Positions 305-17,108 of a stretch of 64,000 nt of DNA are shown here, piece by piece. A program made the position numbers and the translations under genes. Each line of letters opens with the position of its first letter. Position 1 is the first letter of the stretch. The DNA comes from Lachnospiraceae bacterium (GTDB lineage Bacteria; Bacillota; Clostridia; TANB77; CAG-508), in NCBI GenBank assembly GCA_963621995.1, contig CAVFFZ010000005.1, positions 2,930-66,929 on the forward strand. The letters are read 5' to 3'. Below the pieces are notes generated by a model, which made no database searches, was not told the DNA's origin, and saw only the letters and a program-made list of their open reading frames with translations.

Positions 305-545
305 TTTTTCATTTAGAAAATACAAGTATCAAAGTATTGATAAATATGAGAAAATTTTAGAGCAAAATAGAGCAAGACAAAAAAGATTTAGAGATAAGAA
401 AAAAGAAGAAAGTAACGTTACGCAACCGTCAAGTAACGTGGAAGAAGAGAATATAACAGAAAAGAATAAAATAGAAAATAATAGATTAGAAGATGATATA
501 AAGGCAGGTGAAAATGGTAGTGGATTCAAAACAATTGATTTCTGA
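297..545 (+). CDS. Small basic/acidic hypothetical protein. Its tail (NRARQKRFRDKKK..SNVT..SNV) resembles the C-termini of phage DnaD-like replication organisers.
   Basis: 82-aa ORF with a TTG start that overlaps the next gene by 38 nt. Only a loose compositional resemblance, no catalytic motif. Confidence 0.3.
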   Translation: MDHFSFRKYKYQSIDKYEKILEQNRARQKRFRDKKKEESNVTQPSSNVEEENITEKNKIENNRLEDDIKAGENGSGFKTIDF

Positions 546-1383
546 CATAGTTTTAGATACTAATAATAAAATGCACAAGCAGTGCAAATTCTGTGGAAAG
601 TTATTACATATAAATGATTATACTGCACTATATGTCAATATTGTTTATAAAGATATAGCAACTGCATATGAAAGATGTACCTGTAATGAGGCTAGTAAGA
701 TTTGGCAACAATATGATGAATACATTGAAAAAGACAAAATAAGAAAAATCAATTTAAGTAAAATAAACAAATTATTTAAAAATAATAATTTAGGAAAACG
801 TCAATTAAATAGCACATTTAAAAATTATAAAATAACAAATAAGAATAAAAATGCTTATGAAAATGTTAAAAAATATGTAGATAAATTGATAAAAGGAACA
901 ACTAATAAAGGACTTTTTATAACAGGAGCTTATGGTGTAGGTAAAACTTATTTAGCATCATGCATTGCAAATGAAATTATTAAGAACGGAAAATCAGTAA
1001 TATTTGGAACATTAATACAATTGTTAAATTTTATTAGAGATTCATATAGCGATTCAGAAGTTTCTGATAAAGATTATTTGAATTTATATTCGAGTGTTGA
1101 TCTTTTGGTAATTGATGATTTAGGAAAAGAAAAGCCAACAGAATGGGTATTAGAAAAACTATTTTTGATAGTAAATAATAGATATAATAATTATTTGCCG
1201 ATTATTATAACTACAAACTATAACAGAAATCAATTAAGAGAAAGATTATGTGTAAATAAAAATTATAGTATTGTTGATTCAATAATTTCAAGATTATATG
1301 AAATGTGTGCTGGTATTGAGATTAAGGATGATGACCATAGGATGAGTGATTCCCTAATTAGGGAATCACTCCGAAATAGTTGA
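508..1383 (+). CDS. DnaC/IstB-like AAA+ helicase-loader ATPase
   Basis: Walker A GAYGVGKTYLA and Walker B LLVIDDLGKE, with an N-terminal Cys cluster (CKFCGK...CTC). Size and layout are typical of phage/plasmid DnaC-like loaders. The start may be GTG 508 or ATG 514. Confidence 0.8.
   Translation: MKMVVDSKQLISDIVLDTNNKMHKQCKFCGKLLHINDYTALYVNIVYKDIATAYERCTCNEASKIWQQYDEYIEKDKIRKINLSKINKLFKNNNLGKRQLNSTFKNYKITNKNKNAYENVKKYVDKLIKGTTNKGLFITGAYGVGKTYLASCIANEIIKNGKSVIFGTLIQLLNFIRDSYSDSEVSDKDYLNLYSSVDLLVIDDLGKEKPTEWVLEKLFLIVNNRYNNYLPIIITTNYNRNQLRERLCVNKNYSIVDSIISRLYEMCAGIEIKDDDHRMSDSLIRESLRNS
1344..1371. repeat. Perfect 28-bp palindrome GAGTGATTCCCTAA|TTAGGGAATCACTC inside the last codons of the DnaC-like CDS
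   Basis: Read directly: 14+14 nt perfect inverted repeat with no spacer. Confidence 0.9.
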
Positions 1384-1460: not shown

Positions 1461-1703
1461 ATTGTTTTAGAGAAAAAACTAAAATAAGAGAAATGTTTTT
1501 AGCAAGATTCCCTTTTGTGTACACAAAGTTTTTTGGATAGTTGGGAAAGTCCCAAACCCTTTTATGAAGTGGAGATGATAAATTGAAGAAAGATAAAATT
1601 ATAACAATTAGAGTTAGTGAAAAAGAGAAGAGCGGATTGATTGAGAAAAGTAAAAAAATATGATATATATTTATAAAAGAAATATAAGGAGATGCTATAA
1701 TAA

Positions 1704-4700
1704 TTGAGAATAGAAGAATTAAATAAAATACAAAAAAATGCTATGAGTAAAGAAATAATAAAGGAACATTATGAATGGGAAGATGAAAGATTGATTTCTT
1801 ATATAATAGGGGAAATACCTTTTGAAAGAAAAATATATAGGTATAGTGGTAAAGAATTATCAAAAAAAGAACTAGACCAAAATGATATAATTGAAAAAAT
1901 TAATGAAATTATAAAAAAATATAATTATAATATGAAAATAGAACAATTAGAATTTGATGAACTAGAGAAAGAATATGTAAAATTAGAAAAATATAAAGAG
2001 AAGTTTTATACTTCATATGATGATGTTATTAATGGAATGAAATTCAATAAAGTTCTTATGATAAGTGGACCAGGAGGAATAGGAAAGAGTCAATTTTTAT
2101 TTGAACTTTCAGAAAAAGTAAGTAAAAAATTCAAATATCTATGTTTATATGGAAAATATTGTGAAAATGTAAGCAAGGAAATCTTCACACAAATAAGTAA
2201 AGATATAAAAAATGATAGGTTTTATTTTATCATTGATGCAATTAACGAATTTAGCAAAGATTTAAGAAAGAAAATATATAAATTTATAAATGATAATAAA
2301 GATAATTCAAACTTAAGAATAATAATTTCATTAAGAGATTTTTCAATGGCAGAAAAAGAAATTCAAGAATTAAAAAAGTTAGTTGATGTTGAAGAAACTT
2401 TTACAGGAGTTGATCCAGATAATGCATTAGAAAAAATATCAGAAAAATATAATTTGGACTTATCAATATATGATAGATTATTATATGATAATAATCCATT
2501 GCATTTAAAACTAATAATAAAGTCAATAAGTGAGAATCAATTAACGAATAAAAGGTTAAAGCCAATTACAAAAGGAACATATATTTATGAACATTTTATT
2601 AAGAATGTCCTAACTAAAAATGAATGGAATATTACAAAAGATATAATTGAGGAGATGTTTAAAAACAAGAGTAAAGAAATAAAAGTAGATGAATTGAATA
2701 AATTAGATATAACAGATATTAATGCATATATGAATAAAATGAAAACAAATAATTTTATCGGTACATATGATTATGATAATGATACTTTTGTTTATTTTAT
2801 AAATGAAACTTTAACAGATTATTTAATTGCAAGATTTTTATTTGATAATTTAGTAGGATTGAATATATCTGAAACCGAAGAATATATAAATAAGATTGTA
2901 AAAGTATTTTATAGTATTCATGATCAAGTTATTTTAATGCTATTTGAAAAATATGAAACTAATATAGAAATGGCTATAAAAATAATAAAGGAAACTGATT
3001 TAAATAATTACATGGATATAGAGATTTTTAACGAATTAAATTTAAGTACTGATAATATGGTGAAAATTCAAAAAATGCTTAAAGTAAATAGTTCATTAGA
3101 ACAATTATTAATTCGAGCTGGAGGAAATGAAAGTAATCCATTTAATTGTACAAATTTTTTAAATAATAAATTAAAAAAATTTTACGATAAAAATCAATTA
3201 AATATAGTAGGATATGATGTTAAAAAAATAAGACATAAATTAAAAGTATATGTTCAAACTATTAGCAAATTTAATTATGATAAAAAATACATAGAAGAAA
3301 AATTCTGGTATGCAATTTGGTGTTCATCATCAGTCAATAAATTAACTAGAGCATTAGCTAAAAAGTTGATATTTGAAATAACTAATATTCATTCAGAGTA
3401 TATTAACAAATTGATATCAGTGTATAATGAAGTCAAAGATGAATATATACAAGAAATGGTAATACAAGTATTAAGTTCTTTAAAAAAGAATAATAAAATA
3501 ATAAAGAAATTTTTTAATAGAATAAATGTTAAAGATTTTTGTAATATTAAGAATTTATACTTTATTAGCAACTATCTATATGGAAAAGAAAATTATGAAA
3601 AAATGGAAAAAACAAATTATCTTTTAGATACAGACAAAAAAATAGATAGTAATATTTTAAAATTTTTACATAGAATATTTTTTACATATAAATATGATTA
3701 TGATTTCTTTGGTTTCGAAACTTATAATTCTTCTATAACATTTCAAACTAAGTTTGTGAAGGAAGACAGAAAAGCTGTTATAAAAGTAAATAGATTTATT
3801 CAAAATAACTTTAAATGTTTGAATGATAATGAATGCCATTCAACATATTTTAAAGAGAATTTTATAGATAAAAAATTTTCAATAAATGAAGAAGTAATAG
3901 AGAATAGAGTAATTTATTTAGCATGGCAGAAAATTTTCAAGAGATATATGAAAACATATAATATAAAAATCAAAGATTTAGATAATATACACGTGTATGA
4001 AGAAGATGAGAAAGGAATTATATATAAGGCCTTAGAATTATCACTTTTGAAAATTAATGGCTCTATGACTTGTAACTACTTTACAGATGATTTTGAAATA
4101 TATGGAGACTATAAGGGATATCAATTTAATTGGTATGATAAGTATGATGAAAGAGCTGAAATATATTATCCAGTAGCTGTTTTTAATCAAGATATAGAAA
4201 ATTTAGATAATAAGACTTTGAAAAAAATAGTAATTCCCGAGAAAAAAAATATAAAATGGGTGAAAGACAGCGAATTAAGCTTAAATAATATAAAGAAAAT
4301 TATAGAACCTATAACATATAAAAACGAAAAATATTATATGTTATATGGAAGTGTAAGATTAGATGAAAAATCAGATGATGAATATGGTAATAGTTGGATT
4401 GATACATATATAATAAATCTTGCAATAGATGAAGATTATAATTTATGTGGTGTTAGTGATGAAGATAGAAAATATACAATAGAGACTAATAAATATAGAG
4501 GAAATTTAGAAGACTATAAAAGTAAAAGTTATAAAATGTCAACTAGTTTATATAGTTCAAACGATTTAAGTAACGTATATGTAACAACAGATTTTAATTT
4601 GCCACCGGCAATAATAATAAAAGAATTTAATTTACATTATAATAAATTTTCTTCCTCATGGAATGATATTAATGAAGAAAAAGTCATATTAGTTAATAAC

Positions 4701-5069
4701 AATGAAGGAATGTGGTATAGAAAAGGATGCGTTGGTACTTTATATATAAAGAAAAAATATTACGATATATTAATAAAAAAATATAATTACAAATATTTTT
4801 GCTTTACAGAGAAATATCATCCTAAAACAGGATATTGTCAAGACTCAGCACTTCAAATTCAAATAAATTCTGATGGCAGTATTGAAAAATATAAACATTA
4901 TAAAAGTCATAAACAGCTTCCTAGACAGCAAAACATAGAGTGCAAGAAATGTATAGTATACAAAAAAGAAAAAGAGAATGAGAAAAAGTGGAAGGATAAT
5001 AAATTCTATAATTTATTAATTGATGATATTAAAGAAATTTGGGATGAATATAATGAAAATGATAATTAA
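1704..5069 (+). CDS. Large STAND/NACHT-like P-loop NTPase (1121 aa) with long uncharacterised C-terminal region. Candidate defence sensor.
   Basis: Walker A MISGPGGIGKSQF and Walker B-like FYFIIDAINEF about 60 aa later, then RIIISLRD. About 115-aa coiled N-terminus and about 800 aa of helical/unknown C-terminal sequence. RBS AAGGAGA upstream of TTG 1704. Confidence 0.6.
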   Translation: MRIEELNKIQKNAMSKEIIKEHYEWEDERLISYIIGEIPFERKIYRYSGKELSKKELDQNDIIEKINEIIKKYNYNMKIEQLEFDELEKEYVKLEKYKEKFYTSYDDVINGMKFNKVLMISGPGGIGKSQFLFELSEKVSKKFKYLCLYGKYCENVSKEIFTQISKDIKNDRFYFIIDAINEFSKDLRKKIYKFINDNKDNSNLRIIISLRDFSMAEKEIQELKKLVDVEETFTGVDPDNALEKISEKYNLDLSIYDRLLYDNNPLHLKLIIKSISENQLTNKRLKPITKGTYIYEHFIKNVLTKNEWNITKDIIEEMFKNKSKEIKVDELNKLDITDINAYMNKMKTNNFIGTYDYDNDTFVYFINETLTDYLIARFLFDNLVGLNISETEEYINKIVKVFYSIHDQVILMLFEKYETNIEMAIKIIKETDLNNYMDIEIFNELNLSTDNMVKIQKMLKVNSSLEQLLIRAGGNESNPFNCTNFLNNKLKKFYDKNQLNIVGYDVKKIRHKLKVYVQTISKFNYDKKYIEEKFWYAIWCSSSVNKLTRALAKKLIFEITNIHSEYINKLISVYNEVKDEYIQEMVIQVLSSLKKNNKIIKKFFNRINVKDFCNIKNLYFISNYLYGKENYEKMEKTNYLLDTDKKIDSNILKFLHRIFFTYKYDYDFFGFETYNSSITFQTKFVKEDRKAVIKVNRFIQNNFKCLNDNECHSTYFKENFIDKKFSINEEVIENRVIYLAWQKIFKRYMKTYNIKIKDLDNIHVYEEDEKGIIYKALELSLLKINGSMTCNYFTDDFEIYGDYKGYQFNWYDKYDERAEIYYPVAVFNQDIENLDNKTLKKIVIPEKKNIKWVKDSELSLNNIKKIIEPITYKNEKYYMLYGSVRLDEKSDDEYGNSWIDTYIINLAIDEDYNLCGVSDEDRKYTIETNKYRGNLEDYKSKSYKMSTSLYSSNDLSNVYVTTDFNLPPAIIIKEFNLHYNKFSSSWNDINEEKVILVNNNEGMWYRKGCVGTLYIKKKYYDILIKKYNYKYFCFTEKYHPKTGYCQDSALQIQINSDGSIEKYKHYKSHKQLPRQQNIECKKCIVYKKEKENEKKWKDNKFYNLLIDDIKEIWDEYNENDN

Positions 5070-5135
5070 ATAGTTATTTTATTGTAAAAATTCTATGTTT
5101 ATGATAAAATGACCATAGTTTTGAGAGGTGAAAAT

Positions 5136-6107
5136 ATGCAAAACAAAGTAAAGCCATTTGTAAAATGGGCGGGAGGTAAAGGAAGTCTATTAAATCAGTT
5201 AAATAAGTATTATCCATTAGAACTAAAAAATGGAGAAATAGAATGCTATATAGAACCTTTTGTAGGTGGAGGAGCAGTTTTAATAGATATATTACAAAAT
5301 TATAAAGTAAAGGAAGCATATGCTTTTGATATAAATGAAAATTTAATAAATTCTTATAACATAATAAAAAACAATGTTAATGAATTAATATATAATCTAA
5401 AAATATTAGAAAAAGAATATTTGAGGTTAGAAAAAGATGCAAGAAAAGAATATTTTTATAATATAAGAGAACAGTACAACTCTTATAAGTTAGATAAAGA
5501 TGAAAAGTCATTGCAAAAAGCTGTAGAATTTATTTTTCTCAATAGGACATGTTTTAATGGACTATATAGAGTAAATAAAAATGGCGATTTTAATGTTCCT
5601 ATGGGAAACTATAAGAATCCAACTATATGTGACGAAGAAAATTTAAAGGAATTATCTAGACTTATAAAAAATGTAAAGTTTCAATATGGGGATTATAAGA
5701 CAAGTCAAGAATATATAAAGAAAAATACTTTTGTATATTTTGATCCACCATATAGACCTTTAAATGTTACATCAGGATTTACATCATATACTAAAGAAGA
5801 TTTCGATGATGAAAATCAAAAAGAATTAGCATTATTCTATAAAGAATTAAGTAATAAAAAAGTAAAAGTTATGCTTAGTAATTCTAATCCTAAAAATACA
5901 GATAAAGAAGATTGTTTCTTTGAAAATATTTATAAAGGGTTCAATATTAATGAAGTATATGCCAAAAGGATGATAAATGCTAATTCGAATGGAAGAGGAG
6001 AAATATCTGAACTTCTTATAACAAATTATGAGTCAGATAATTCTTGCTATGGAGAAATAGAATGTATAGAGGGAAATACTATTTTGAAACAGATAATTTC
6101 AAATTAA
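5136..6107 (+). CDS. dpnM: Dam-family N6-adenine DNA methyltransferase (M1.DpnII-like, GATC)
   Basis: N-terminal FVKWAGGK and catalytic FDPPY (FVYFDPPYRP), followed by NRTCFNGLYRVN. RBS GAGAGGTG precedes ATG 5136, and the ORF-track start 5109 lacks an RBS. First gene of a DpnII-type cassette. Confidence 0.85.
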   Translation: MQNKVKPFVKWAGGKGSLLNQLNKYYPLELKNGEIECYIEPFVGGGAVLIDILQNYKVKEAYAFDINENLINSYNIIKNNVNELIYNLKILEKEYLRLEKDARKEYFYNIREQYNSYKLDKDEKSLQKAVEFIFLNRTCFNGLYRVNKNGDFNVPMGNYKNPTICDEENLKELSRLIKNVKFQYGDYKTSQEYIKKNTFVYFDPPYRPLNVTSGFTSYTKEDFDDENQKELALFYKELSNKKVKVMLSNSNPKNTDKEDCFFENIYKGFNINEVYAKRMINANSNGRGEISELLITNYESDNSCYGEIECIEGNTILKQIISN

Positions 6108-6838
6108 TTTATAACGATATATTTAAAGCAATAAAAAAAGTCGAAGATAAAAGTATAGATATGATATTTGCAGATCCACCATATTTTTTATCCAGTGATG
6201 GTATAACTTGTAGTGGGGGGAAAATGGTAAGTGTTAATAAAGGAGAATGGGATAAAACATTATCAATTAAAGAAAAACATAAGTTTAATAAAAAGTGGAT
6301 AAAAGAATGTTATAGAATTTTAAAAGATAATGGTACTATTTGGATAAGTGGAACTTTGCACAACATTTATTCTATAGGAATGGCACTTGAAGAGGAAGAA
6401 TTTAAAATAATAAATAATATTACATGGCAAAAAACAAATCCACCGCCAAATCTAGCATGTAAAACATTTACACATTCTACCGAAACTATTTTATGGGCAA
6501 GAAAAGACTTGAAAAATATTAAATATACATTTAATTATGAAATTATGAAAAAATTAAATAATAATAAACAAATGAAAGATGTCTGGACAACTTCATTAAC
6601 TAAGCCATCAGAGAAAAAACAAGGAAAACATCCAACTCAAAAACCATTAGAAATATTAGATAAAATAATACTTGCTTCAACAAATGAAAATGATTTAGTT
6701 TTAGATCCATTTTGTGGCAGTAGTACAACAGGAATATCAGCAGTTAGATTAAATAGAAGATACATAGGAATAGACAATGAAAAAGAATATTTGGAGATAT
6801 CAAAAAAAAGATTCGAAGAAATAAAGGAGGAGATATAA
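6062..6838 (+). CDS. dpnA: Second N6/N4 DNA methyltransferase of the DpnII cassette (M2.DpnII/DpnA-like, beta class)
   Basis: IFADPPYF near the N-terminus, then HPTQKP and DPFCGSSTTG near the C-terminus (beta-class motif order). Overlaps the dpnM 3' end. RBS GGAGAAA precedes ATG 6062. Confidence 0.85.
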   Translation: MYRGKYYFETDNFKLIYNDIFKAIKKVEDKSIDMIFADPPYFLSSDGITCSGGKMVSVNKGEWDKTLSIKEKHKFNKKWIKECYRILKDNGTIWISGTLHNIYSIGMALEEEEFKIINNITWQKTNPPPNLACKTFTHSTETILWARKDLKNIKYTFNYEIMKKLNNNKQMKDVWTTSLTKPSEKKQGKHPTQKPLEILDKIILASTNENDLVLDPFCGSSTTGISAVRLNRRYIGIDNEKEYLEISKKRFEEIKEEI

Positions 6839-7773
6839 TGTATTTAGAAATGGACTATGATAAATTATCAGAAATATTTGTAAATAATTTATTAGTAACT
6901 AATAGGGGCTTTGATTTTTATGTTGATTGGGAAAATGCGAAAGCGTACAAGGAATTTGAAATAGAATTAAATGCAATGAATGTACTAATAAAAGCAGATA
7001 ATATAAAAGAAAAGTTTTTCAAATTAGTTGAAAAAGTTCCAACTGTTATTGCAACTTTTCCATTATTATTTGCACTTTCCAAAAATGAAAGAAATGAAGT
7101 ATGGAAAGGAAAAAATTTGTTAGCAGTTGTTGGAGATGAAATAGGAAATGCTGAAAATTTAAAATTTTCGTTTGAAGTTGAAAAGCTAAAACAAGGGTTA
7201 TCTAAACAAGAAATAGAAGATTATTATTATTTCTTTGAAAGAATTGGATTAAAAAATTTATGTGAGAATTTAGCAGAAAAAAGTTTAACTGATTATGTTA
7301 TTGGGGTATTAGTAGGTTTAGATTCTAATGGTAGAAAAAATAGAGGTGGTACTGCATTTGAAGATGCATGTGAACCTATAATAAAGAAAATTTGTGATAA
7401 ATATAATGTAACAATGTTATCACAGAAGCAGTTTAAAAAATTAAAGGAATATGGCTTTAGCGTATCTGAAGATATTGCAAATAGAAAAGCAGATTTTATA
7501 TTAATAAAAGACAATAAAGCTTTGAATATAGAAGTTGATTATTTCTTTAGAGGAGGTTCAAAACCTGAAGAAATAATTGATAGTTATATTAATAGACAAC
7601 ATGATTTAGATAAGTTAAATATGGGATTTGTGCTATTAACAGATGGTTTGTGTTGGGATAATAAATCAAAAAATCAATTACAAAAAGGATTTAGAAACAT
7701 GAATTATCTTATGAATTTTTATCTTGCAAAAAATGGAATGCTAGAAGAAGTTATACAAACATATTTTAAATAA
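6838..7773 (+). CDS. dpnB: Type II restriction endonuclease, DpnII/MboI family (GATC)
   Basis: Strong remembered similarity to R.DpnII: DYVIGVLVGLDSNGRKNRGGTAFED, ADFILIKD...IEVDYFFRGGSKPEE and LTDGLCWD. The start overlaps the dpnA stop (TAATG). Confidence 0.85.
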   Translation: MYLEMDYDKLSEIFVNNLLVTNRGFDFYVDWENAKAYKEFEIELNAMNVLIKADNIKEKFFKLVEKVPTVIATFPLLFALSKNERNEVWKGKNLLAVVGDEIGNAENLKFSFEVEKLKQGLSKQEIEDYYYFFERIGLKNLCENLAEKSLTDYVIGVLVGLDSNGRKNRGGTAFEDACEPIIKKICDKYNVTMLSQKQFKKLKEYGFSVSEDIANRKADFILIKDNKALNIEVDYFFRGGSKPEEIIDSYINRQHDLDKLNMGFVLLTDGLCWDNKSKNQLQKGFRNMNYLMNFYLAKNGMLEEVIQTYFK

Positions 7774-7848: not shown

Positions 7849-8580
7849 TTGATATATAATCCTAAAAATTTTAAGTTAGAGAATACAAGCATATGGAGTT
7901 TTAAAGAAAGAGGTAATTGGGCTACACATAAAGGGGATTATAGAGGAAATTGTCCACCGCAAGTACCAAGAAATCTAATATTAAAATATACAAGAGAAGA
8001 GGATATCGTTTTGGATCCATTTTGTGGAAGTGGTACATCAATGATAGAATGCAAATTATTAAATAGAAAGGGGATAGGAATTGATGTAAATATAGAATCA
8101 CTAAAATTAGCTAGAGATAGATTAAATTTTGAATATAATAATATTTATGAACCAAAGTTAATACGATCAGATTCAACTAATTTAAAAAAAATAATTCCAG
8201 ATGAAAAAATTGATTTTATCTTTGCTCATCCACCATATTCAGATATAATAAAATATAGTAAAGATATAAAAGAAGATATATCAAGATTAAATTTACAAGA
8301 ATTTTTAAATCAAATGAGTTTATTTTCAAAAGAATGTTTTAGAGTTCTAAAAAAAGACAAAGTTTGTTCAATTTTAATAGGTGATATTAGAAAAAATAAA
8401 AATGTTATTCCATTAGGATTTCATATCATGAATATTTTTATTCAAACAGGTTTCACATTGAAAGAAATAATTATAAAAGAACAACATAATTGTAAGATGA
8501 CAGATTATTGGAAAAATAAAAATAAGGATTTTTATTTATTAGCACATGAATATATATTTGTTTTTACAAAGAAAAATTGA
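7849..8580 (+). CDS. Stand-alone DNA (N6-A/N4-C) methyltransferase with permuted motif order
   Basis: SAM motif LDPFCGSGTS precedes catalytic FAHPPYSD. Before it lies a WSF..H.G.YRGNCPPQVPRNLI segment resembling the HPxxFP region of beta-class enzymes. TTG start with RBS AAGGAGGA. Confidence 0.7.
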   Translation: MIYNPKNFKLENTSIWSFKERGNWATHKGDYRGNCPPQVPRNLILKYTREEDIVLDPFCGSGTSMIECKLLNRKGIGIDVNIESLKLARDRLNFEYNNIYEPKLIRSDSTNLKKIIPDEKIDFIFAHPPYSDIIKYSKDIKEDISRLNLQEFLNQMSLFSKECFRVLKKDKVCSILIGDIRKNKNVIPLGFHIMNIFIQTGFTLKEIIIKEQHNCKMTDYWKNKNKDFYLLAHEYIFVFTKKN

Positions 8581-8628: not shown

Positions 8629-10338
8629 ATGGATGAATTATTAACTGCAGAAACTAAAAATTTTCAATCTATAATGACAGAATCAAGAAAATTAAAAATA
8701 CCACAATATCAAAGAGATTATTCGTGGAGTGAGGAACAATGGGAAGAACTATTCAACGATATATTAAAAGGAAAAAAGAATAAAAATAAACATTATATGG
8801 GGGCATTAGTATTTATAAATAGAAAAGATAATATACTAGAAGTTGTTGATGGACAGCAAAGATTAACAACAATTGCAATAATGATACATTCTGTTATTAA
8901 ATTTATTAATTATTTAGTAGAAAGTGAAATAAATAAAGAAGAAAATTTAGAAAGAATAAATATTATAAAATCTTATATTGGAAAAAAATCGAGTAAAGAT
9001 CTTACTTGGGAAAACAGATTAGAATTAAATGAAGAAAATAATATTTTTTATAACACATATATAATGAATTTTGAACAAATAACCTCAATTCCAGAAAAAA
9101 TTTCATCAAGTAATAAATTATTGATAAATTGTCAAAATTATTATTATAAAAAAATTCTTGAATATGCTGACATTAAAGATATAAATAAAATTACAGATAA
9201 AAAATTATTTAAAATTATGGAATTAATAGATTATATTGTTGAGAACTTAGTATTTGTAAAAATAGTTGCAACTAATGAATTAAGTGCATATACGATATTT
9301 GAAACTTTAAATGATAGAGGAATAGATTTGTCAATAACAGACTTATTAAAAAATTATTTATTATCACTTTTTCAAAGAAAAAATGATCAGAAATTTGCTA
9401 AAAATAGATGGGATAGTATAGTTGAAAAAGTTGAATTAAAAAATTTTCCGACTTTTTTAAGATATTATTGGATGATTGGTAATAAGGCTATGAAAAAAGA
9501 TGAATTATTTAAAGCTATACGAAACTATATTAAAGATAGAAAGTCGGCTTTAGCATTCTTAAATGAATTAGATGAATATGCTGAAATTTTTTCAGCACTT
9601 CAAGACGAAACATCATATTACTGGAATGACAAAAAGAGTCTAAAAGACATAGTACTAAATTTACATATATTAAAAGTAAAACAATGTTATCCACTATTAA
9701 TGGTTACTTTAAAAAAATTTCCGTCAAAATACTGGATAAATATATTTAGGGCATGTGAAAATATATCTTTTAGATATTTAACAATTTGTGGTAAAAATCC
9801 AAATACTCTTGAAGACATATATAATAAAGTATGTAATAAAATTATTATAGGAGATATAAGCAATTACAGTGATATAAAAAAAGAATTGAATAAAATATAT
9901 ATACAGGATGAAGAGTTTTATAATGATTTCATTAATAAAACAATAAATACAAAAGGAAATCAGAGAATTGCTAAGTATATTTTGATAAAATTAAATACTC
10001 ATATTTCTACTGAAAAAATTGATTTAGATATAAATAAAAATAGTCTTACATTAGAACATATATTGCCAGAAACTCCAACTAATTATTGGAGCGAAATTTT
10101 TCCAAAAGATATAATAGATGACTATATTTATAAGATTGGAAATTTTACATTATTGTCTCAAAAAAGAAATCAAAATATTGCTAATAGTGATTTTAATAAA
10201 AAAATAGAAATATATAGTAAAAGTGAAATATTAATTACAAAGAATGTTTCAAAATATTATACTGAATGGAATAAAAACAACATAGACAGAAGACAAATGT
10301 TTATGGCAGAAAAAGCTAAAGACATCTGGAAAATATAG
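8629..10338 (+). CDS. DUF262 + DUF1524 protein (GmrSD-family type IV restriction nuclease-like)
   Basis: N-terminal IPQYQRDYSW and DGQQRLTT (ParB-like DUF262). C-terminal LEHILPE...GNFTLLSQKRNQNIAN (His-Me finger DUF1524). Confidence 0.8.
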   Translation: MDELLTAETKNFQSIMTESRKLKIPQYQRDYSWSEEQWEELFNDILKGKKNKNKHYMGALVFINRKDNILEVVDGQQRLTTIAIMIHSVIKFINYLVESEINKEENLERINIIKSYIGKKSSKDLTWENRLELNEENNIFYNTYIMNFEQITSIPEKISSSNKLLINCQNYYYKKILEYADIKDINKITDKKLFKIMELIDYIVENLVFVKIVATNELSAYTIFETLNDRGIDLSITDLLKNYLLSLFQRKNDQKFAKNRWDSIVEKVELKNFPTFLRYYWMIGNKAMKKDELFKAIRNYIKDRKSALAFLNELDEYAEIFSALQDETSYYWNDKKSLKDIVLNLHILKVKQCYPLLMVTLKKFPSKYWINIFRACENISFRYLTICGKNPNTLEDIYNKVCNKIIIGDISNYSDIKKELNKIYIQDEEFYNDFINKTINTKGNQRIAKYILIKLNTHISTEKIDLDINKNSLTLEHILPETPTNYWSEIFPKDIIDDYIYKIGNFTLLSQKRNQNIANSDFNKKIEIYSKSEILITKNVSKYYTEWNKNNIDRRQMFMAEKAKDIWKI

Positions 10339-10339
10339 A

Positions 10340-10361
10340 AAAAGCCCAATAGGGCTTTTTT
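10340..10361. terminator. Bidirectional terminator between convergent genes
   Basis: AAAAAGCCC-AATA-GGGCTTTTTT. Confidence 0.8.
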
Positions 10362-10649
10362 CTACACCAACTTAACCTCCTCCATCACAAACTCATCCAC
10401 CATCTCCTGAATCATATTCAAATACCTAACTTGCTCAACAAAACTCTCATTCTCAGAAGGAGCAGGAAACTTTTCTCTAAGTTCAAACTCAACCAAATTA
10501 GCATAACTCTTCAAATGATATTCAAACTCCAACAAATAATCCATAACAGAACCATCCATAACCAAACGAGAAAACTTAAAAGGCTTATACTCTTCCAAAT
10601 ACTTCTTAGCACAAACACCATATTTACCTAGTTTCAAATTTACCACCAC
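10362..10649 (-). CDS. TnpV-like transposon-associated small protein
   Basis: LGKYGVCAKKYLEEYKPFKF..L..G...DYL, then an acidic helical tail. This matches the GKYG..R.KYLKEH.P pattern I remember for clostridial TnpV proteins. Confidence 0.5.
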   Translation of the reverse strand: MVVNLKLGKYGVCAKKYLEEYKPFKFSRLVMDGSVMDYLLEFEYHLKSYANLVEFELREKFPAPSENESFVEQVRYLNMIQEMVDEFVMEEVKLV

Positions 10650-10947
10650 CCAAACTCATAATAACTAAATTCAAGCAATCACCAAAACCAGCCCTATAAT
10701 ATTTATCATTCCAATAACCAATATAATCAAGATAATTCTCATCAAGCTTGTCCAATTGCCTTTGAACATACTTCTTATTACAACTTGCAACATTTTTCAA
10801 AATATTATCACAATACTTATCAAATTCAATTAAATGTCCTTTATCTTCTTCAGTAATTTTGCTCAAACACTCATCTCTAAAAATTATCCATTCTTTCATC
10901 AAATCATTAACTTTATTATCTAAATCCATAAAAATCATTCCTTTCAA
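10624..10947 (-). CDS. Hypothetical protein (107 aa) overlapping the TnpV-like ORF by 26 nt
   Basis: ORF with coding-like composition and no recognisable motif. It could be the N-terminal part of a frameshifted fusion with 10362-10649. Confidence 0.4.
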   Translation of the reverse strand: MKGMIFMDLDNKVNDLMKEWIIFRDECLSKITEEDKGHLIEFDKYCDNILKNVASCNKKYVQRQLDKLDENYLDYIGYWNDKYYRAGFGDCLNLVIMSLGGGKFETR

Positions 10948-11109
10948 AATTTAATCAAAAATCTAAAATAGTCATAAAAATTTATTAAAAAACTAATCAA
11001 AATCGTAAAAAAATAAATTTAATTGCTATTTAAAATCAAATGTAATTATTAGAAAATTCCTAAAACTTTCTAATAAAAATCAAACGAAATTAATACAAAT
11101 CTCCTAAAA

Positions 11110-11168
11110 TCTCCCAACAAAAATTGGGGAGAAATTGGGGATCAAATTCTCAAAATCACCCCAATTTT
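11110..11168. promoter_or_regulatory. Two adjacent hairpins built from AATTGGGG(A) / CCCCAATT elements. Alternative pairings are possible.
   Basis: TCTCCCAA-N6-TTGGGGAGA (11110-11132) and AAATTGGGG-N18-CCCCAATTT (11132-11167). On the minus strand the first reads as stem + UUUU. Confidence 0.3.
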
Positions 11169-11472
11169 AACAAAATTGCACACTAAATAAAAAAACAGAA
11201 AAGCACTAATATCACTAGCATACAATACAATTCAACATATCCAATAAAATATGTTATGTAACCCTCATAACCCGAAGGCCTACACTCACACAAATCACCA
11301 TTAAAAAACAAAACTGAATCCAATTAATCTTACACAAAAATAACAAAAATTATATGATATAATAAACAAAACCACAATATAAAAACATTTAAAAAAAGAA
11401 AAACAAAAAGAAATATAAAAAATAAGAAAACAAAATATGCAATTATAGGGTAAAAAAAATATGGAGTAAAAT

Positions 11473-12459
11473 ATGGAAAGGTTTGAAATAAGATCTAAAA
11501 TCTTTAAAAAATATCACTTAGTAAACGGACAAAAAATTACAATAAAACAACTTAAAAAAATTTCAGAAAACGAAAAAATTGAATTAAAAGATTTAATACT
11601 AATATTAAACTGTTATAAAAATGCAAAATATAAAAATCTAGAATCTTGGACTACTATAAAAATAAAACAAGAATGTACAAAAAGAGAAATAGTAAACCTA
11701 ATAAAAATTGAGTTAAAATATCTACCGCAATATGGTAGTAGAATGTATAGTAAGAAAGAATTAAACAATATATGTCAAAAATATAGAATCAATATTGATG
11801 ACTTTTTAACCTATGTATATAAATATAAAATTTGCTATTATGAAAATGCTTATATTCTATCAATGAATAAAAATGGAATTTGGATAGGAGAAAATACAAA
11901 ATTATCAGTTGAATTTTTGAATGATAATTATTTGAAACTATATAAAAAAGTAGAAAAAATTGCAAATAAAATGTCAATTTTGTATAATTCTAAAATAACA
12001 AAAGATGAAATGATAGATGTAGGAATAAATTATATTTTAGACCAAGGAAGAATAGAAAAAAATATGTCTTTTAATAATGAAAGAGCTATTGGAAAATTAG
12101 TTTATAAAGCGAAATACAAAATGTTAGAACAAGTAATAAAAGCATTTAAAGAAAGTAACTTAGATGATATTATGGATTTCATGGGAGATTACGATAAAGT
12201 AGAGCAAAAGAGTAAAATAGATAATTGGTTATATACAATAAAATGGAGAAAAATTGAAAGAATAATTATTGATAGTATCCAAACAAATATAGAAGAAATT
12301 ATAAAAAATAGAAAGTGCGGACTGCGTATGCTAGCTAAAAGATTAAATATGGAGTATAAAGAACTTTATCAAAACATAGAAAATATTTCTGAAAAATTAA
12401 TAAAAGGAAATAAGGCAAAGGTTTGTAGAGATGGAAGGGTAGTGATTATGAATGAATAA
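11473..12459 (+). CDS. Hypothetical cytosolic protein (328 aa), possibly HTH/sigma-like. First gene of a coupled three-gene operon.
   Basis: No catalytic motif. The C-terminal segment GLRMLAKRLNMEYKELYQNIENISEKL looks like an HTH. Its stop overlaps the next start by 8 nt. Confidence 0.45.
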   Translation: MERFEIRSKIFKKYHLVNGQKITIKQLKKISENEKIELKDLILILNCYKNAKYKNLESWTTIKIKQECTKREIVNLIKIELKYLPQYGSRMYSKKELNNICQKYRINIDDFLTYVYKYKICYYENAYILSMNKNGIWIGENTKLSVEFLNDNYLKLYKKVEKIANKMSILYNSKITKDEMIDVGINYILDQGRIEKNMSFNNERAIGKLVYKAKYKMLEQVIKAFKESNLDDIMDFMGDYDKVEQKSKIDNWLYTIKWRKIERIIIDSIQTNIEEIIKNRKCGLRMLAKRLNMEYKELYQNIENISEKLIKGNKAKVCRDGRVVIMNE

Positions 12460-12859
12460 ATATAAAATAAAAGGTACTAAAGTAACAGATGAAATAATAA
12501 GAATATTTGAAGAAAATAGTTTAAAAGTAATGACAATTAAAGACATGAGAAGTGTTGTAAATAAAATAATTATAGTAGGTATCTTTTATTTTTGTATTTC
12601 TTTTATATTAGAAAAAATACCATTAGCCAATCTAATATTTTTAGCTATTTTTGTATTCGTAACTATTGGATATATGTTTATCAAATTTAATAATATTTTA
12701 TATTTTAGAAGTAATAAAATAGGAAGTAAACCATATAAAATTTTTTCAAAGAATAAATATTATGAAATTAACAAACATAATAGAAAAATAATTTCAAAGA
12801 GTGAAGTTAAATTAATAAAAAAGATTTTAAAAAGTAATAATATGTATAATATTGAGTGA
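12452..12859 (+). CDS. Small membrane protein (135 aa, two predicted TM helices)
   Basis: Hydrophobic stretches IIIVGIFYFCISFIL and LANLIFLAIFVFVTIGYMFI. Translationally coupled on both sides. Confidence 0.5.
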   Translation: MNKYKIKGTKVTDEIIRIFEENSLKVMTIKDMRSVVNKIIIVGIFYFCISFILEKIPLANLIFLAIFVFVTIGYMFIKFNNILYFRSNKIGSKPYKIFSKNKYYEINKHNRKIISKSEVKLIKKILKSNNMYNIE

Positions 12860-13213
12860 ATGAAAGAATTAAGAGATTACTTTAAATATAACAAGAAGAC
12901 CGATAAATATGATGAAGCAGGATTTGCACAAATAGTAGTAGGAATGTATGTAATTCCAATTACTTTCAATATAATTAGCATATATACTGCAATAAGTAAA
13001 AATGAATTGCAAAAAAATATCATAGATATTGGTTACATTATAGTTTTTGCAATTACAGTAGTTGCAATTATATACATAATATACATTATAAAGAAAATAA
13101 AAATGTTATCAATTACTAATTCATATACATATCCAATTTTTATAGAGACTTTAACTGATTTTATTATATTAGAATCTAGAGAAAGTAAAGAGGTTCTAAG
13201 AATTAAAGGATAA
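12860..13213 (+). CDS. Small membrane protein (117 aa, two predicted TM helices)
   Basis: Hydrophobic stretches FAQIVVGMYVIPITFNIISIYTAI and IGYIIVFAITVVAIIYIIYII. The ATG directly abuts the previous TGA. Confidence 0.5.
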   Translation: MKELRDYFKYNKKTDKYDEAGFAQIVVGMYVIPITFNIISIYTAISKNELQKNIIDIGYIIVFAITVVAIIYIIYIIKKIKMLSITNSYTYPIFIETLTDFIILESRESKEVLRIKG

Positions 13214-13388
13214 ATGCTACCGACTTTTTATTAATTATATTATTTTATAGTTATCTAAAATAATCAATAATATAAAAATATAGAAATAATCATATTTAAT
13301 GACAAATTTCGACAAAAAATACAATATAAATATGTTAAATTAAAATCATATAGTATTGAGCAAAAAATAGTAAAAGAGGAACAAAAAT

Positions 13389-15680
13389 ATGGAAAAATTA
13401 GACGAAAATAAGTATATTAGTTATAATGAATATGAAAATTTCTGCAAAAGTAACAATATAGAAGAAGACAAGGACTTGTTAAATAGAAAAAATAATAAAT
13501 TTATTGAAGAAAAACTAGTCGAATTTAAAGAATATTTTGATCATATTTTTACAGATGTAGGAGAAAATATAAATTTAGATGAAGAGCAAAGAAAAATTAT
13601 TCTAAGAGATGATGACTATTGTTTAATAAATGCAGGGGCTGGATCAGGTAAGAGTACAACTATGGCTGCAAAGGTAAAATATTTAGTAGATAAATTAAAT
13701 ATTAAACCAGAGGAAATAATAATGCTAACATTTACAAAAAAATCTAGTGAAGATTTAGATGAAAAGGTAAATGCTTCATTAGATCTAGGAATACCTGTTT
13801 CTACATTTCATTCATTAGGAATGAAATTTATAAAAAAATTTTATCCATATCCAATTCAAGTAGTAGGAGCAGATGAACAAAAACAGATTATTTGCAATTA
13901 TATTAAAGAATTATTTAAAGATAAGGCTAAGTTAAAAGAATTAGTTGAATTATTTCAAAAATATGAAGACAAAAGTTATATTGCAAAAGGATTTATAGAA
14001 AACTTTGAAAAATTTGATACATTTGAAAAATATTTTGAAGATTATAAAAAAAGAAAATATTTAGCAGAAAATAATAAAGTAGGTGGAATACATCAATATT
14101 TAATAAATAGATTAAGTTTAAGAAATTCACTTTACACAATTAAGGGAGAAAAGGTAAAATCAATAGGTGAAGTTAGAATTGCAAATTTCCTATATATTAA
14201 TGGTATAGATTACTCATATGAAAAAATATATGAGGAGAAAGTTAATGAAGATACAACATATGTTCCGGATTTTACAATAGAATATCAAGGGAAGAATATT
14301 TATATAGAATATTTTGGATTATCAACTTGTTATAATGAAAAAAATGAGCTTAATAGAAAGGAAATTGCAAAATATAATAGGACAAGAAAAATTAAAGAAA
14401 GATTTCAAGAAGGCAATAATAATGATTTTATCAATTTAGATTATAAAACACCAGACGGAGGTTTTATAACAACATTAGAACGAGAATTGTTAAGCAGAAA
14501 TATCAAATTTGAAAGAAAAAATGATAAAGAAATTTTTGATAGAATTTTAGATAACAACTTAAATGCTGAATTTTTTAGATTTACTGATTTAGTAATAAAT
14601 TTTATAAATATTTTTAAAAATATGTTAGTAGATGACGAAAACTATATGTTTAATAAAAGAATGTCTGAAATTAAAGAAGAAAATTTTAAATATTACTATT
14701 ATTATGAAAACAGACAAAAAGAAGCTGAATCTAGAATAAAGGCATTAGAATATTTAAAAGAAATTTATAAGTATTACCAACAATATCTATCAGATAAACA
14801 TATGATAGATTATAGTGATATGATTAATATTTCTTATAAACATATAATAAAAGAAGTTAAAAATAAATATTCAGAGTTAAATTATAAATATATTATAGTA
14901 GATGAATATCAAGATATTACATTTCAAAGATTTTTATTTGTAAAAAGATTAATAGAATATTTTGATGCTAAACTAATTGCAGTTGGTGATGATTGGCAAT
15001 CTATTTATGCTTTTGCAGGTTCGAGATTAGAACTATTTAATAAATTTAGTGAACTATTTTTAAATTCAAAGGATGATATGTATCTTTCAACAACATATAG
15101 ATATGGACAAGAATTAGCAGATATAACGAGTAAATTTATTCTTGAAAATTATGAACAAAGTAGGAAAAATATAAAATCAGTAAAAAATTTAGCGCATCCT
15201 ATAGAACTTTGTGAATATAGTGGATATGAAGAATATGAGGAAATAAATAAGATAGTACATAAGTTATATATGGAAAATAAAAATGATAATATTTTAATTT
15301 TAGCTAGGACTAATGAATGCTTAAATAAATTAGCAAAAAGTGAATTTTTTACAAAAGGAATAAACGATGTATTAATATGTAAAGAATTACCGGATGCTAA
15401 AATAGAAGCATTAACTATGCATCGTTCAAAAGGATTGACATCAGATCAAGTAATAGTATTTGGATTGAGGGAAAAATTATTTCCAAGCAAAGGTAGACCA
15501 TCTCATTGGATATTCGAATATTTTAAACTAGATTCAATAAGTGAACAAATGCCATTCGCAGAAGAAAGAAGATTATTTTATGTGGCATTAACAAGAACTA
15601 GAAATAAAGTTTATTTAGTAGTTCCTAATAATAGAATTAATAAAAGTGAGTTCATTAATGAACTTGAAGAGATGCTATAA
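13389..15680 (+). CDS. SF1 UvrD/Rep/helicase IV-like helicase with an inserted PD-(D/E)xK/Vsr-like nuclease-type segment
   Basis: Helicase motifs NAGAGSGKSTT (I), IIVDEYQD (II), VGDDWQSIYAFAGS (III), TYRYG (IV), TMHRSKGL (V) and FYVALTRTRNKVYL (VI). Between I and II lies E..IANFLYINGIDYSYE...YVPDFTIEY...IYIEYFG. Confidence 0.75.
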   Translation: MEKLDENKYISYNEYENFCKSNNIEEDKDLLNRKNNKFIEEKLVEFKEYFDHIFTDVGENINLDEEQRKIILRDDDYCLINAGAGSGKSTTMAAKVKYLVDKLNIKPEEIIMLTFTKKSSEDLDEKVNASLDLGIPVSTFHSLGMKFIKKFYPYPIQVVGADEQKQIICNYIKELFKDKAKLKELVELFQKYEDKSYIAKGFIENFEKFDTFEKYFEDYKKRKYLAENNKVGGIHQYLINRLSLRNSLYTIKGEKVKSIGEVRIANFLYINGIDYSYEKIYEEKVNEDTTYVPDFTIEYQGKNIYIEYFGLSTCYNEKNELNRKEIAKYNRTRKIKERFQEGNNNDFINLDYKTPDGGFITTLERELLSRNIKFERKNDKEIFDRILDNNLNAEFFRFTDLVINFINIFKNMLVDDENYMFNKRMSEIKEENFKYYYYYENRQKEAESRIKALEYLKEIYKYYQQYLSDKHMIDYSDMINISYKHIIKEVKNKYSELNYKYIIVDEYQDITFQRFLFVKRLIEYFDAKLIAVGDDWQSIYAFAGSRLELFNKFSELFLNSKDDMYLSTTYRYGQELADITSKFILENYEQSRKNIKSVKNLAHPIELCEYSGYEEYEEINKIVHKLYMENKNDNILILARTNECLNKLAKSEFFTKGINDVLICKELPDAKIEALTMHRSKGLTSDQVIVFGLREKLFPSKGRPSHWIFEYFKLDSISEQMPFAEERRLFYVALTRTRNKVYLVVPNNRINKSEFINELEEML

Positions 15681-15878
15681 AAACACTAAAATTTTAAAAT
15701 TTATAAAAAAAGACTTAGTAAAAAAAGAAAAAACTTTAACTAAAAAAGAAATTAAAAAGTCTAAAACTTTTGAGTTTTGTGAAAAAAATCATAAGGCTCA
15801 AAACTTTTTTCATAATTTTGAAAAAACTTGACTATAATAATAAAAGATAGTATAATTATTATAGTTAGGAGGAGATTT

Positions 15879-17108
15879 ATGGAAAGAATAAGTAGAGAAA
15901 ATTATTTATCTATATTAAAAAATTTCAAAGATCAACAAATAATAAAAGTTATTACAGGAATAAGAAGATGTGGGAAATCAACATTACTTGAAATTTTTCA
16001 AGATTACTTAAAAGAAACTGGAGTAGAAGAAAAACAAATAATATCAATAAATTTTGAAAATGCAGATTATGAGGAATTACAAGACAGAAAGAAATTATAT
16101 GAATATATAAAAGAAAGATTAGTAAAAGGAAAAAAGACATACGTTTTTCTAGATGAAATTCAAAATGTAAAAGAATTTGAAAAAACAGTAGATAGCCTAT
16201 TTATAAATAAAGATGTAGACTTATATATAACAGGTTCAAATGCATATTTATTATCTTCAGAATTAGCAACATTGCTTACAGGAAGATATATAGAAATAAA
16301 AATGTTGCCATTATCGTTTAAAGAATATTTATCAAGCTTTGAAGATAAAACAGACTTGTCAAGAAAATTTAGAGATTATCTAAAATATAGTTCATTTCCT
16401 CAAGCAATTGAATTATATAAAATAAACCCAGAAAACATAAATTTATTTTTAGATGGAATATATAATACTATTTTGTTTAAAGATGTAATGCAAAGAAAAG
16501 GAATAACAGATAAGAATGTCTTAGAAAGAGTTACAAAATATTTGTATGACAACATAGGCAATAGAACAAGTATGAAAAGCATAAGTGATAATATTGAAGG
16601 AATAGAAAAAAATTCATCATATAATACAATTTCAAACTATGTAGATGCATTAATAGATAGTTACTTAATATTTAAAGCCAACAGATATGATATTAAAGGA
16701 AAAGAGTTTTTAAAAACTCAAGAAAAATATTATGCAATAGATATAGGATTAAGATATTATATGTTAGGACAAGGCTCTGGTCGAGATATGGGACATATAT
16801 TAGAAAATATTGTGTATCTTGAATTGTTGAGACGAGGATATGAAGTATATATAGGAAAATATGATGATTTAGAAGTTGACTTTGTAGCAAGAAAGCCAGA
16901 AAATATTATATATTATCAAGTTGCACTTACAACTAGAGGAGAAAATGAAGAGGACAATAAAATACTAGAAAGAGAATTAACTCCATTGAAGAAAATAAAT
17001 GATAATTATCCTAAATACATTTTGACATTAGATGATGATTTAGATGCTGATTTTGATGGAATAAAGAAGATAAATGTGTTGGATTGGTTATTGGAAGATA
17101 AAAGGTAA
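15879..17108 (+). CDS. AAA-type ATPase with DUF4143-like C-terminal domain
   Basis: Walker A TGIRRCGKSTL and Walker B YVFLDEIQ. C-terminal LE..VY.EL.RRGYEVYIGK....EVDFVA (restriction-endonuclease-like fold typical of DUF4143 proteins). Own promoter TTGACT-N17-TATAAT and RBS AGGAGGAG before ATG 15879. Confidence 0.75.
   Translation: MERISRENYLSILKNFKDQQIIKVITGIRRCGKSTLLEIFQDYLKETGVEEKQIISINFENADYEELQDRKKLYEYIKERLVKGKKTYVFLDEIQNVKEFEKTVDSLFINKDVDLYITGSNAYLLSSELATLLTGRYIEIKMLPLSFKEYLSSFEDKTDLSRKFRDYLKYSSFPQAIELYKINPENINLFLDGIYNTILFKDVMQRKGITDKNVLERVTKYLYDNIGNRTSMKSISDNIEGIEKNSSYNTISNYVDALIDSYLIFKANRYDIKGKEFLKTQEKYYAIDIGLRYYMLGQGSGRDMGHILENIVYLELLRRGYEVYIGKYDDLEVDFVARKPENIIYYQVALTTRGENEEDNKILERELTPLKKINDNYPKYILTLDDDLDADFDGIKKINVLDWLLEDKR

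Follow-up and report, generated by a model that had tools for sequence, protein, structure and literature searches.

The locus considered here raises the question of what is encoded by an intact open reading frame (ORF) of 1121 amino acids (aa), at positions 1704-5069 on the forward strand of a 64,000-nucleotide stretch of DNA from a Lachnospiraceae bacterium (assembly GCA_963621995.1, contig CAVFFZ010000005.1, positions 2,930 to 66,929; hereafter the window). A first-pass annotation had described the product as an orphan STAND/NACHT-like NTPase at the head of a defence island. The protein has the domain architecture of a STAND protein and an NTPase module homologous to those of NACHT proteins; its gene has no conserved partner and resides among defence genes. 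The family that it represents is new and uncharacterised and belongs to a well-established kind, that of the antiviral STAND/NACHT proteins. A little better than an even chance is given to the reading that the gene is a single-gene, NACHT-type (NLR-like) antiviral sensor.

An AlphaFold2 (AF2) model of the protein, built on 22 homologues (pLDDT 76, pTM 0.73), was compared with the PDB by Foldseek, one of the tools that the first-pass annotation had suggested. NLRC4, Avs4, the archaeal STAND-TPR protein 6mfv, MalT and Apaf-1 rank at the top, and ORC/Cdc6 and other AAA+ proteins rank below these STAND matches. The alignments with Avs4 (8dgf, 943 columns) and with 6mfv (648 columns), for which no coordinates are given, are long enough to extend past the NTPase module. 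In hhalign comparisons, aa 115-386 are matched by a Segatella copri 'NACHT domain-containing protein' (WP_006848580.1; probability 96%, E 2.7e-9) and by a Staphylococcus equorum 'SMEK domain-containing protein' (probability 92%), and the similarity stops just where the winged helix ends. The protein contains a P-loop with Walker A and B motifs, a nucleotide-binding domain (NBD) followed by a helical domain (HD) and a winged-helix domain (WHD), and a further 735 aa after the WHD, as expected of a STAND protein.

The four motifs quoted in the first-pass annotation (GPGGIGKSQF, FYFIIDAINEF, RIIISLRD and CKKCIVY) were all found at their claimed places when the translation was checked (Table 1). 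Among the 22 homologues, down to 30% identity, G122, G124, G125, G127, K128, D178, A179, N181, E182, R211, C1080 and C1083 are invariant, as are RhhhSxR and NPLHLK. For the Walker B motif of NACHT proteins the signature D[GAS]hDE is given (Koonin and Aravind 2000, as quoted by Kibby et al., bioRxiv 10.1101/2022.07.19.500537). The family has D178-A-I-N181-E182 in this place, which keeps the small residue and the final Glu but has the invariant Asn where the closing acidic pair, and with it the second acid of the signature, should begin. The family differs from NACHT proteins in this residue and in that the gathering threshold of Pfam NACHT (PF05729) is not reached, just one of the 22 members matching it (E 0.0084).

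Scans of the whole protein with Pfam, NCBIfam and PADLOC return just sub-threshold P-loop matches. The Pfam matches are, however, consistent across the family: NPHP3_N (PF24883) and AAA_14 in 16 of the 22 members, nSTAND5 (nSTAND_NTPase5, PF25199) in 15, and nSTAND3 (PF20720) in a few. Across most members the NBD finds its best Pfam matches in NPHP3_N and the two nSTAND families, but the family-wide matches are weak (best E 6e-7) and just the P-loop core of about 100 aa aligns; the window protein itself scores 21.6 bits against nSTAND_NTPase5, below the curated cut-off of 34. From the Foldseek ranking, the hhalign homology, the consistent Pfam matches and the near-signature Walker B, the protein may be called a NACHT-type STAND NTPase that falls below every curated family threshold. 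To this extent the class named in the first-pass annotation is upheld. The PADLOC check that it had also proposed gave a divided result: the sole family matched is Avs2 (model PDLC02166; 10 of the 22 members, best E 1.2e-5), but there is no full-length match to any of the Avs1-5 models. In the window protein, the only member for which coordinates are shown, the match covers aa 62-141 (E 0.0034) and spans the helical extension that precedes the NBD and Walker A.

The description as an orphan does not hold. Among 5.8 billion proteins searched, 54 relatives came up, most of them full length (1,100-1,128 aa), with 31-92% identity. A profile run against 1.84 billion cluster representatives gave 240 matches; about 50 of these are full-length and share one architecture from end to end, and contig-truncated fragments make up the remainder. 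No relative carries an informative name, the sole source name being 'hypothetical protein'. Among species-representative genomes, members occur in metagenome-assembled genomes of gut Clostridia and Bacilli and in Erysipelothrix inopinata DSM 15511 (WP_187534659.1, 'hypothetical protein'). Profiles of the C-terminal domain (CTD) alone and of the N-terminus alone, searched against the same 5.8 billion proteins, found fragments of this family and no other architectures. The family is unnamed in Pfam, NCBIfam and PADLOC, and its accessions were not found in the text of Table S1 of Kibby et al.; a 2026 catalogue that lists 589 STAND clades (PMC13581612) may already contain it.

Conservation is even along the protein, with mean pairwise identities of 0.59 in the NBD, 0.54-0.55 in the alpha arm that follows the WHD, and 0.59 in the CTD. 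Among close relatives dN/dS is 0.15-0.2 for the whole protein, with its lowest values in the CTD (0.07-0.17), and no diversifying (arms-race) selection was found by this measure. The start codon also appears to be under constraint. The gene starts with TTG, a start supported by the homologues, whose alignment begins at the same residue. When the window gene at 1704 was compared with those of the loci L001, L004, L006, L009, L010, L012, L014 and L018, a weak start was seen to be kept in all nine, TTG in eight (55-93% protein identity) and GTG in one; ATG is seen solely in the two most divergent members (L017 and L023). A ribosome-binding site of the AGGAG type precedes most of the homologous starts compared, and its pairing with TTG is kept in eight homologous loci. 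A conserved TTG or GTG start behind a strong ribosome-binding site fits tight control over the amount of a protein that does harm when plentiful, and suggests selection for low expression.

The first-pass annotation had placed the gene in a defence island, downstream of mobile-element remnants and directly upstream of a restriction-modification (RM) cassette, and the scans agree on each count. An IstB/IS21-like ATPase gene lies upstream, two methyltransferase genes and a DpnII endonuclease gene lie right downstream, and library scans find the DpnII RM system, GmrSD/HEC-06, a GajB-like helicase, PDC-S01 and HEC-05, the defence genes continuing downstream to about 19 kb (Table 1). In homologous loci the company is similar in kind but different in content. 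Among 114 neighbouring ORFs in 14 loci, methyltransferases, ResIII/SNF2/DEAD helicases, AAA_15/AAA_21 proteins with RloB (AbiL), AriA-like ATPases, serine recombinases and integrases recur. The locus of one homologue (P0042) is a serine-recombinase island with a UvrD-like helicase; that of another (P0004) contains an OLD nuclease, a KAP NTPase and FtsK; a third (P0050) has prophage remnants and AlwI RM or MutH with radical-SAM genes; and the most divergent member (P0054) has a type I RM hsdS-hsdR pair immediately upstream. No neighbour is conserved among the homologous loci, so that the gene stands alone, as had been supposed. Varying flanks, the lack of a partner, and repeated company of RM, Abi and OLD genes are what is typically seen when a defence gene is complete in itself and passes from island to island.

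The same neighbourhoods bear on the possibility that the protein belongs to a system of several genes and that its output is supplied by the DpnII RM or GmrSD nucleases or by the downstream UvrD-like helicase. Just 40 nt separate the gene from the downstream Dam-type methylase gene, with no terminator detected between them, and the STAND-DpnII arrangement is repeated in L009 and L010. Moreover, L001 contains, at 12380-14563, a helicase 37% identical to that of the window (full length, E 2e-116), one gene downstream of a 55%-identical STAND homologue. The DpnII linkage, however, is confined to L009 and L010, whose STAND proteins are 88% identical to that of the window (in L018, 93% identical, the sequence ends at the STAND gene), and elsewhere radical-SAM, FtsK, type I RM or unrelated genes are found. 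UvrD-type domains (AAA_19, AAA_30) occur in just two of the 114 neighbouring ORFs. A conserved partner gene was sought and rejected: the downstream genes of about 260 aa are unrelated to one another, the downstream neighbour in L012 is unrelated, and the helicase occurs in two loci only. A multi-gene system is therefore regarded as highly improbable.

Distribution and selection are relevant to another alternative, in which the protein is a non-immune STAND NTPase that serves a mobile element or the host, either as a regulator of the MalT/AfsR type or as an element-maintenance ATPase linked to the IstB/IS21-like gene. The presence of MalT and ORC/Cdc6 among the fold matches is in keeping with such a role, as is purifying selection throughout the protein, without the diversification typical of many immune sensors. 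In addition, an IstB-like gene adjoins the STAND gene in the window and also a probable family remnant (P0161, see below), but these two IstB-like genes share just 25% identity over 110 aa. No DNA-binding or other output domain was found with Pfam or in segment scans. The family was not found in phage records or viral contigs, and a tblastn search of plasmids gave two weak matches, to the NTPase module alone, which are the annotated NACHT and SMEK relatives. An element-borne or housekeeping function is also at odds with the variable flanks, the patchy distribution, and the repeated RM, Abi and OLD company without a fixed operon. It is considered improbable.

The N-terminus had been described as short and coiled and as lacking a recognisable enzymatic effector, and the segment after the NTPase as lacking recognisable repeats; these descriptions are accurate. 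Residues 1-113 are helical in the AF2 model, return coiled-coil-like noise alone from Pfam and the PDB, and have no effector domain match in the Pfam, NCBIfam and PADLOC scans. The module consists of a conserved 50-aa head, in which N7 and W25 are invariant, and a helical extension (54-112), and is a candidate adaptor or output module or part of a ligand cavity. A check for internal repeats in aa 387-820 was negative, and Pfam scans of aa 1-114, 383-819 and 820-1121 gave coiled-coil noise and no real domain. In the arm, the loop AGGNESNPFNC (G473, G474, P479, N481 and C482 invariant) lies in the part of the model with the lowest confidence (pLDDT ~40) and is a candidate ligand- or nucleotide-contact loop. 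Five cysteines are invariant in the family (C482, C705, C711, C1080 and C1083). It is a reasonable inference from the alignment that C705/C711 and C1080/C1083 (CX5C...CX2C) form a zinc site that ties the C-terminal tail to the arm.

For want of an N-terminal effector, the first-pass annotation had suggested that the C-terminal third (aa ~750-1121) may hold one. The protein would then be an antiviral STAND of the C-terminal-effector NLR type. There are several points in favour of this proposal. The CTD is the most conserved segment outside the NTPase, with many invariant polar and aromatic residues and the lowest dN/dS; its first elements run alpha-beta-beta-beta-alpha-beta, like the core of PD-(D/E)xK nucleases; four cysteines (705, 711, 1080 and 1083) are invariant; and some bacterial NACHT proteins have their effectors at the extreme C-terminus (Kibby et al., bioRxiv 10.1101/2022.07.19.500537). 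However, aa 821-1068 have no enzyme match in Pfam, PADLOC, PDB sequence or fold searches, and neither the CTD profile nor the whole-family profile finds anything real among PDB sequences. The alignment contains no conserved catalytic motif. No D...(D/E)xK triad is kept, since the candidate acid D900 precedes T-Y rather than x-K and is N in P0054, and a PD-(D/E)xK nuclease identity was rejected on these grounds and for the lack of nuclease fold matches.

The fold search of the CTD points in a different direction. When the CTD was modelled separately as aa 820-1121 (pLDDT 81), its sole significant PDB match by Foldseek was SeAvs3 in complex with terminase (8dgc_A; E 1.8e-6, prob 1.0, 271 columns), the next-best match having an E of 0.05. 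In BFVD the model also matches an unnamed viral protein (A0A2H4PQT3, E 7.8e-5). In both SeAvs3 and EcAvs2 the TPR arm is followed by a common C-terminal sensor, rich in beta-strands, that binds the terminase ATPase domain (PMC13601566), and the CTD, placed after its long alpha arm, occupies the same position. The match could instead fall on the Avs3 nuclease domain, as Foldseek did not report the aligned residues, and this would favour a C-terminal effector. The N-terminal nuclease of Avs3, however, closely resembles EcCap4 (7YIB) and DUF4297 (PMC11291478), and these structures, like the many PD-(D/E)xK structures of the PDB, are all missing from the CTD matches. Because these look-alikes are absent, the match is probably to the C-terminal sensor that SeAvs3 shares with Avs2, and not to its nuclease. 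On the model, then, the CTD looks like a ligand-sensing domain rather than an effector, and an effector in the C-terminal third is judged unlikely.

A number of points weigh against a sensor of this kind. The Avs3 link is one Foldseek match from an AF2 model, with a TM of 0.34 and an rmsd of 12 A; the part of the 2,028-aa Avs3 chain that is aligned was not reported; and 8dgc is missing from the top 50 of the whole-protein search. At the sequence level, 14 CTD sequences showed no similarity to any Avs or effector model of PADLOC. The Avs2 matches near the P-loop are weak and unspecific: the unrelated IstB-like neighbour also matches an Avs2 model (E 2e-4), and weakly matches the DrmD and BrxC models as well, through its P-loop. 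The CTD is the most constrained segment, without diversifying selection, which suits an immutable target but equally a catalytic or structural role. Finally, no output mechanism was identified, and an enzymatic effector was not found.

If the protein is an antiviral sensor, its action may be pictured as follows. The alpha arm and the CTD, perhaps with the N-terminal helical extension, would make up a binding pocket for a conserved phage protein; in EcAvs2 the pocket is completed by a helical extension preceding the ATPase (PMC13601566). The CTD resembles SeAvs3 alone, and the C-terminal sensor of SeAvs3 clamps onto the ATPase of the terminase. For this reason the foremost candidate for the trigger, albeit a tentative one, is the large terminase or a P-loop ATPase like it. 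Ligand binding would release the autoinhibition of the STAND protein, and ATP-dependent oligomerisation through the NACHT module would then gather the N-terminal modules. Such clustering would lead to growth arrest or death of the infected cell, either because the N-terminal helical module of ~50-110 aa becomes active in the cluster or brings in a host factor, or because the protein works like the effector-less bNACHT01.

A more specific proposal, and a decidedly doubtful one, is that the family is a Gram-positive, effector-less NACHT-type receptor with a C-terminal sensor like that of Avs1-3, which senses the large terminase or a similar ATPase and stops infection by a mechanism so far undescribed among STAND proteins. 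The ~50-aa N-terminal head might be active, or recruit a host factor, when clustered, or else the protein might act by stoichiometric trapping of the packaging motor. A zinc clasp formed by Cys705, Cys711, Cys1080 and Cys1083 would lock the sensor pocket.

Antiviral STAND/NLR-like proteins form hundreds of clades. To our knowledge, the characterised ones come almost all from Proteobacteria and have an obvious effector. The lack of an effector is nevertheless less exceptional than the first-pass annotation had implied. The anti-phage protein bNACHT01 (clade 14; Walker A K115) has none, and an N-terminal effector is also absent from many of the bacterial NACHT architectures catalogued by Kibby et al. 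(bioRxiv 10.1101/2022.07.19.500537). The window protein is like the bNACHT proteins in its GxGKS, RhhhSxR and NPLxLK motifs, in a Walker B (D-A-h-N-E) that comes near to D[GAS]hDE, and in being encoded by a stand-alone gene in defence islands. It is like bNACHT01 in having about 115 aa before Walker A, as against K115, and no enzymatic effector. By description, the NACHT+HEAT+NCC-H+NCAB1 and NACHT+NCAB2 architectures are also similar, with a helical region, Cys motifs and a C-terminal alpha/beta domain. In contrast, the C-terminal SNaCT of bNACHT01 is short and rapidly diversifying, whereas the corresponding part of the window protein is 735 aa long and under strong purifying selection.

With SeAvs3 (8DGC) and EcAvs2 the window protein shares the order of helical extension, NBD-HD-WHD, alpha arm and beta-rich CTD (PMC13601566). 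However, Avs3 has an N-terminal Cap4-type nuclease and is about twice the size of the window protein, and EcAvs2 has an uncharacterised effector of ~230 aa, while no N-terminal effector is recognised in the window protein. Furthermore, its NTPase is NACHT-like, and its sequence similarity to Avs2 and Avs3 is limited to the P-loop region.

If the family does defend, it would be a tractable case for the study of NLR-like output without an enzymatic effector, the same question that is posed by bNACHT01 and by the effector of EcAvs2. If the structural link to the Avs2/Avs3 sensor holds, the terminase-binding module would have found a further use in Gram-positive bacteria, on a chassis of the NACHT type. 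The points of interest are the Gram-positive setting (the family being confined to gut Firmicutes), the compact size, the lack of an effector and the chance that the Avs2/3 sensor has been put to use again. For annotation, a 'hypothetical protein' becomes a candidate single-gene defence system.

Table 1. Features of the STAND gene and of the surrounding island (positions are those of the window)
Feature	Protein (aa)	Window (nt)	Strand	Basis or remark
Complete coding sequence, 1121-aa NACHT-type STAND NTPase (as called here) of an unnamed family		1704..5069	+	ORF call, homologue alignment, AF2 model, Foldseek
Ribosome-binding site AAGGAG		1687..1692	+	Read from sequence; 11 nt before TTG of STAND gene
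N-terminal helical module, family-specific	1-113	1704..2042	+	AF2 secondary structure; profile search finds module in family alone
P-loop nucleotide-binding domain, alpha/beta	114-236	2043..2411	+	AF2, motifs, alignment, sub-threshold Pfam matches
GPGGIGKSQF (Walker A)	122-131	2067-2096	+	Motif position check
FYFIIDAINEF (Walker B)	173-183	2220-2252	+	Motif position check
RIIISLRD	205-212	2316-2339	+	Motif position check
Helical domain and winged-helix domain	237-386	2412..2861	+	AF2 topology; hhalign matches end at aa ~386
NNPLHLK motif in helical/winged-helix part		2490-2510	+	
LTDYLIAR motif in helical/winged-helix part		2811-2834	+	
All-alpha arm	387-820	2862..4163	+	Alignment, AF2, repeat check
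Loop AGGNESNPFNC, near-invariant	472-482	3117-3149	+	Alignment, AF2
Invariant CX5C in alpha arm	C705, C711	3807-3836	+	Alignment
Beta-rich alpha/beta C-terminal domain, putative ligand sensor	821-1068	4164..4907	+	Domain model, Foldseek, dN/dS
C-terminal helical tail with invariant CxxC (C1080, C1083; nt 4941-4961)	1069-1121	4908..5066	+	Alignment, AF2
CKKCIVY	1080-1086	4941-4961	+	Motif position check
IstB/IS21-like (DnaC-like) AAA+ ATPase		508-1383		Upstream of STAND gene; family scan
DpnII-type cassette, two methyltransferases and DpnII endonuclease		5109-7773		Directly downstream of STAND gene; family scans
Third methyltransferase, after DpnII cassette		7849-8580		N6_N4_Mtase match
Complete GmrSD type IV restriction protein (GmrSD_N + GmrSD_C, HEC-06)		8629-10338		E 2e-179
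GajB-like UvrD helicase		13389-15680		Family scans
AAA_14 + DUF4143 ATPase, PADLOC candidate system PDC-S01, matched nearly end-to-end		15828-17108		E 7e-155
Second GmrSD-family protein, N-terminal DUF262-type domain alone (HEC-05-like)		17168-18961		

The island region is very AT-rich (about 20-26% GC). No IstA transposase gene is visible in the window beside the IstB-like gene. Just 5' of the STAND gene, at 1583-1663, there is a mini-ORF of 26 aa, LKKDKIITIRVSEKEKSGLIEKSKKI, with its own GGAG site. It resembles a ribbon-helix-helix or mobilisation-type protein of which only the N-terminus is left, and this resemblance fits the mobile-element remnants described upstream of the STAND gene.

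A probably rearranged form of the family, P0161 (584 aa; 6001-7755 in L021/L022), has a glycine-rich transmembrane N-terminus fused to the last ~150 aa of the family CTD. It was found on contigs of ~93 kb from two samples, adjoining an IstB/IS21 gene. A remnant left by rearrangement is more probable here than an assembly chimera. From its appearance the N-terminus may be described as tape-measure-like.

Three further observations concern the downstream part of the island. In the methyltransferase encoded at 7849-8580, aa 11-88 match only the C-terminal part (positions 139-219) of the N6_N4_Mtase profile, and the protein may be a permuted, truncated or orphan methylase. The three ORFs that precede the helicase gene (11473-12459, 12452-12859 and 12860-13213) have no Pfam or PADLOC match, and together with the helicase they may form a separate, undescribed helicase-based module. 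Lastly, the stretch from 10001 to 12000 is the only one in the island with an inverted GC skew (-0.29); it contains two small minus-strand ORFs (10362-10649 and 10624-10947), neither of which has a family match, and may represent an insertion boundary or a regulator pair.

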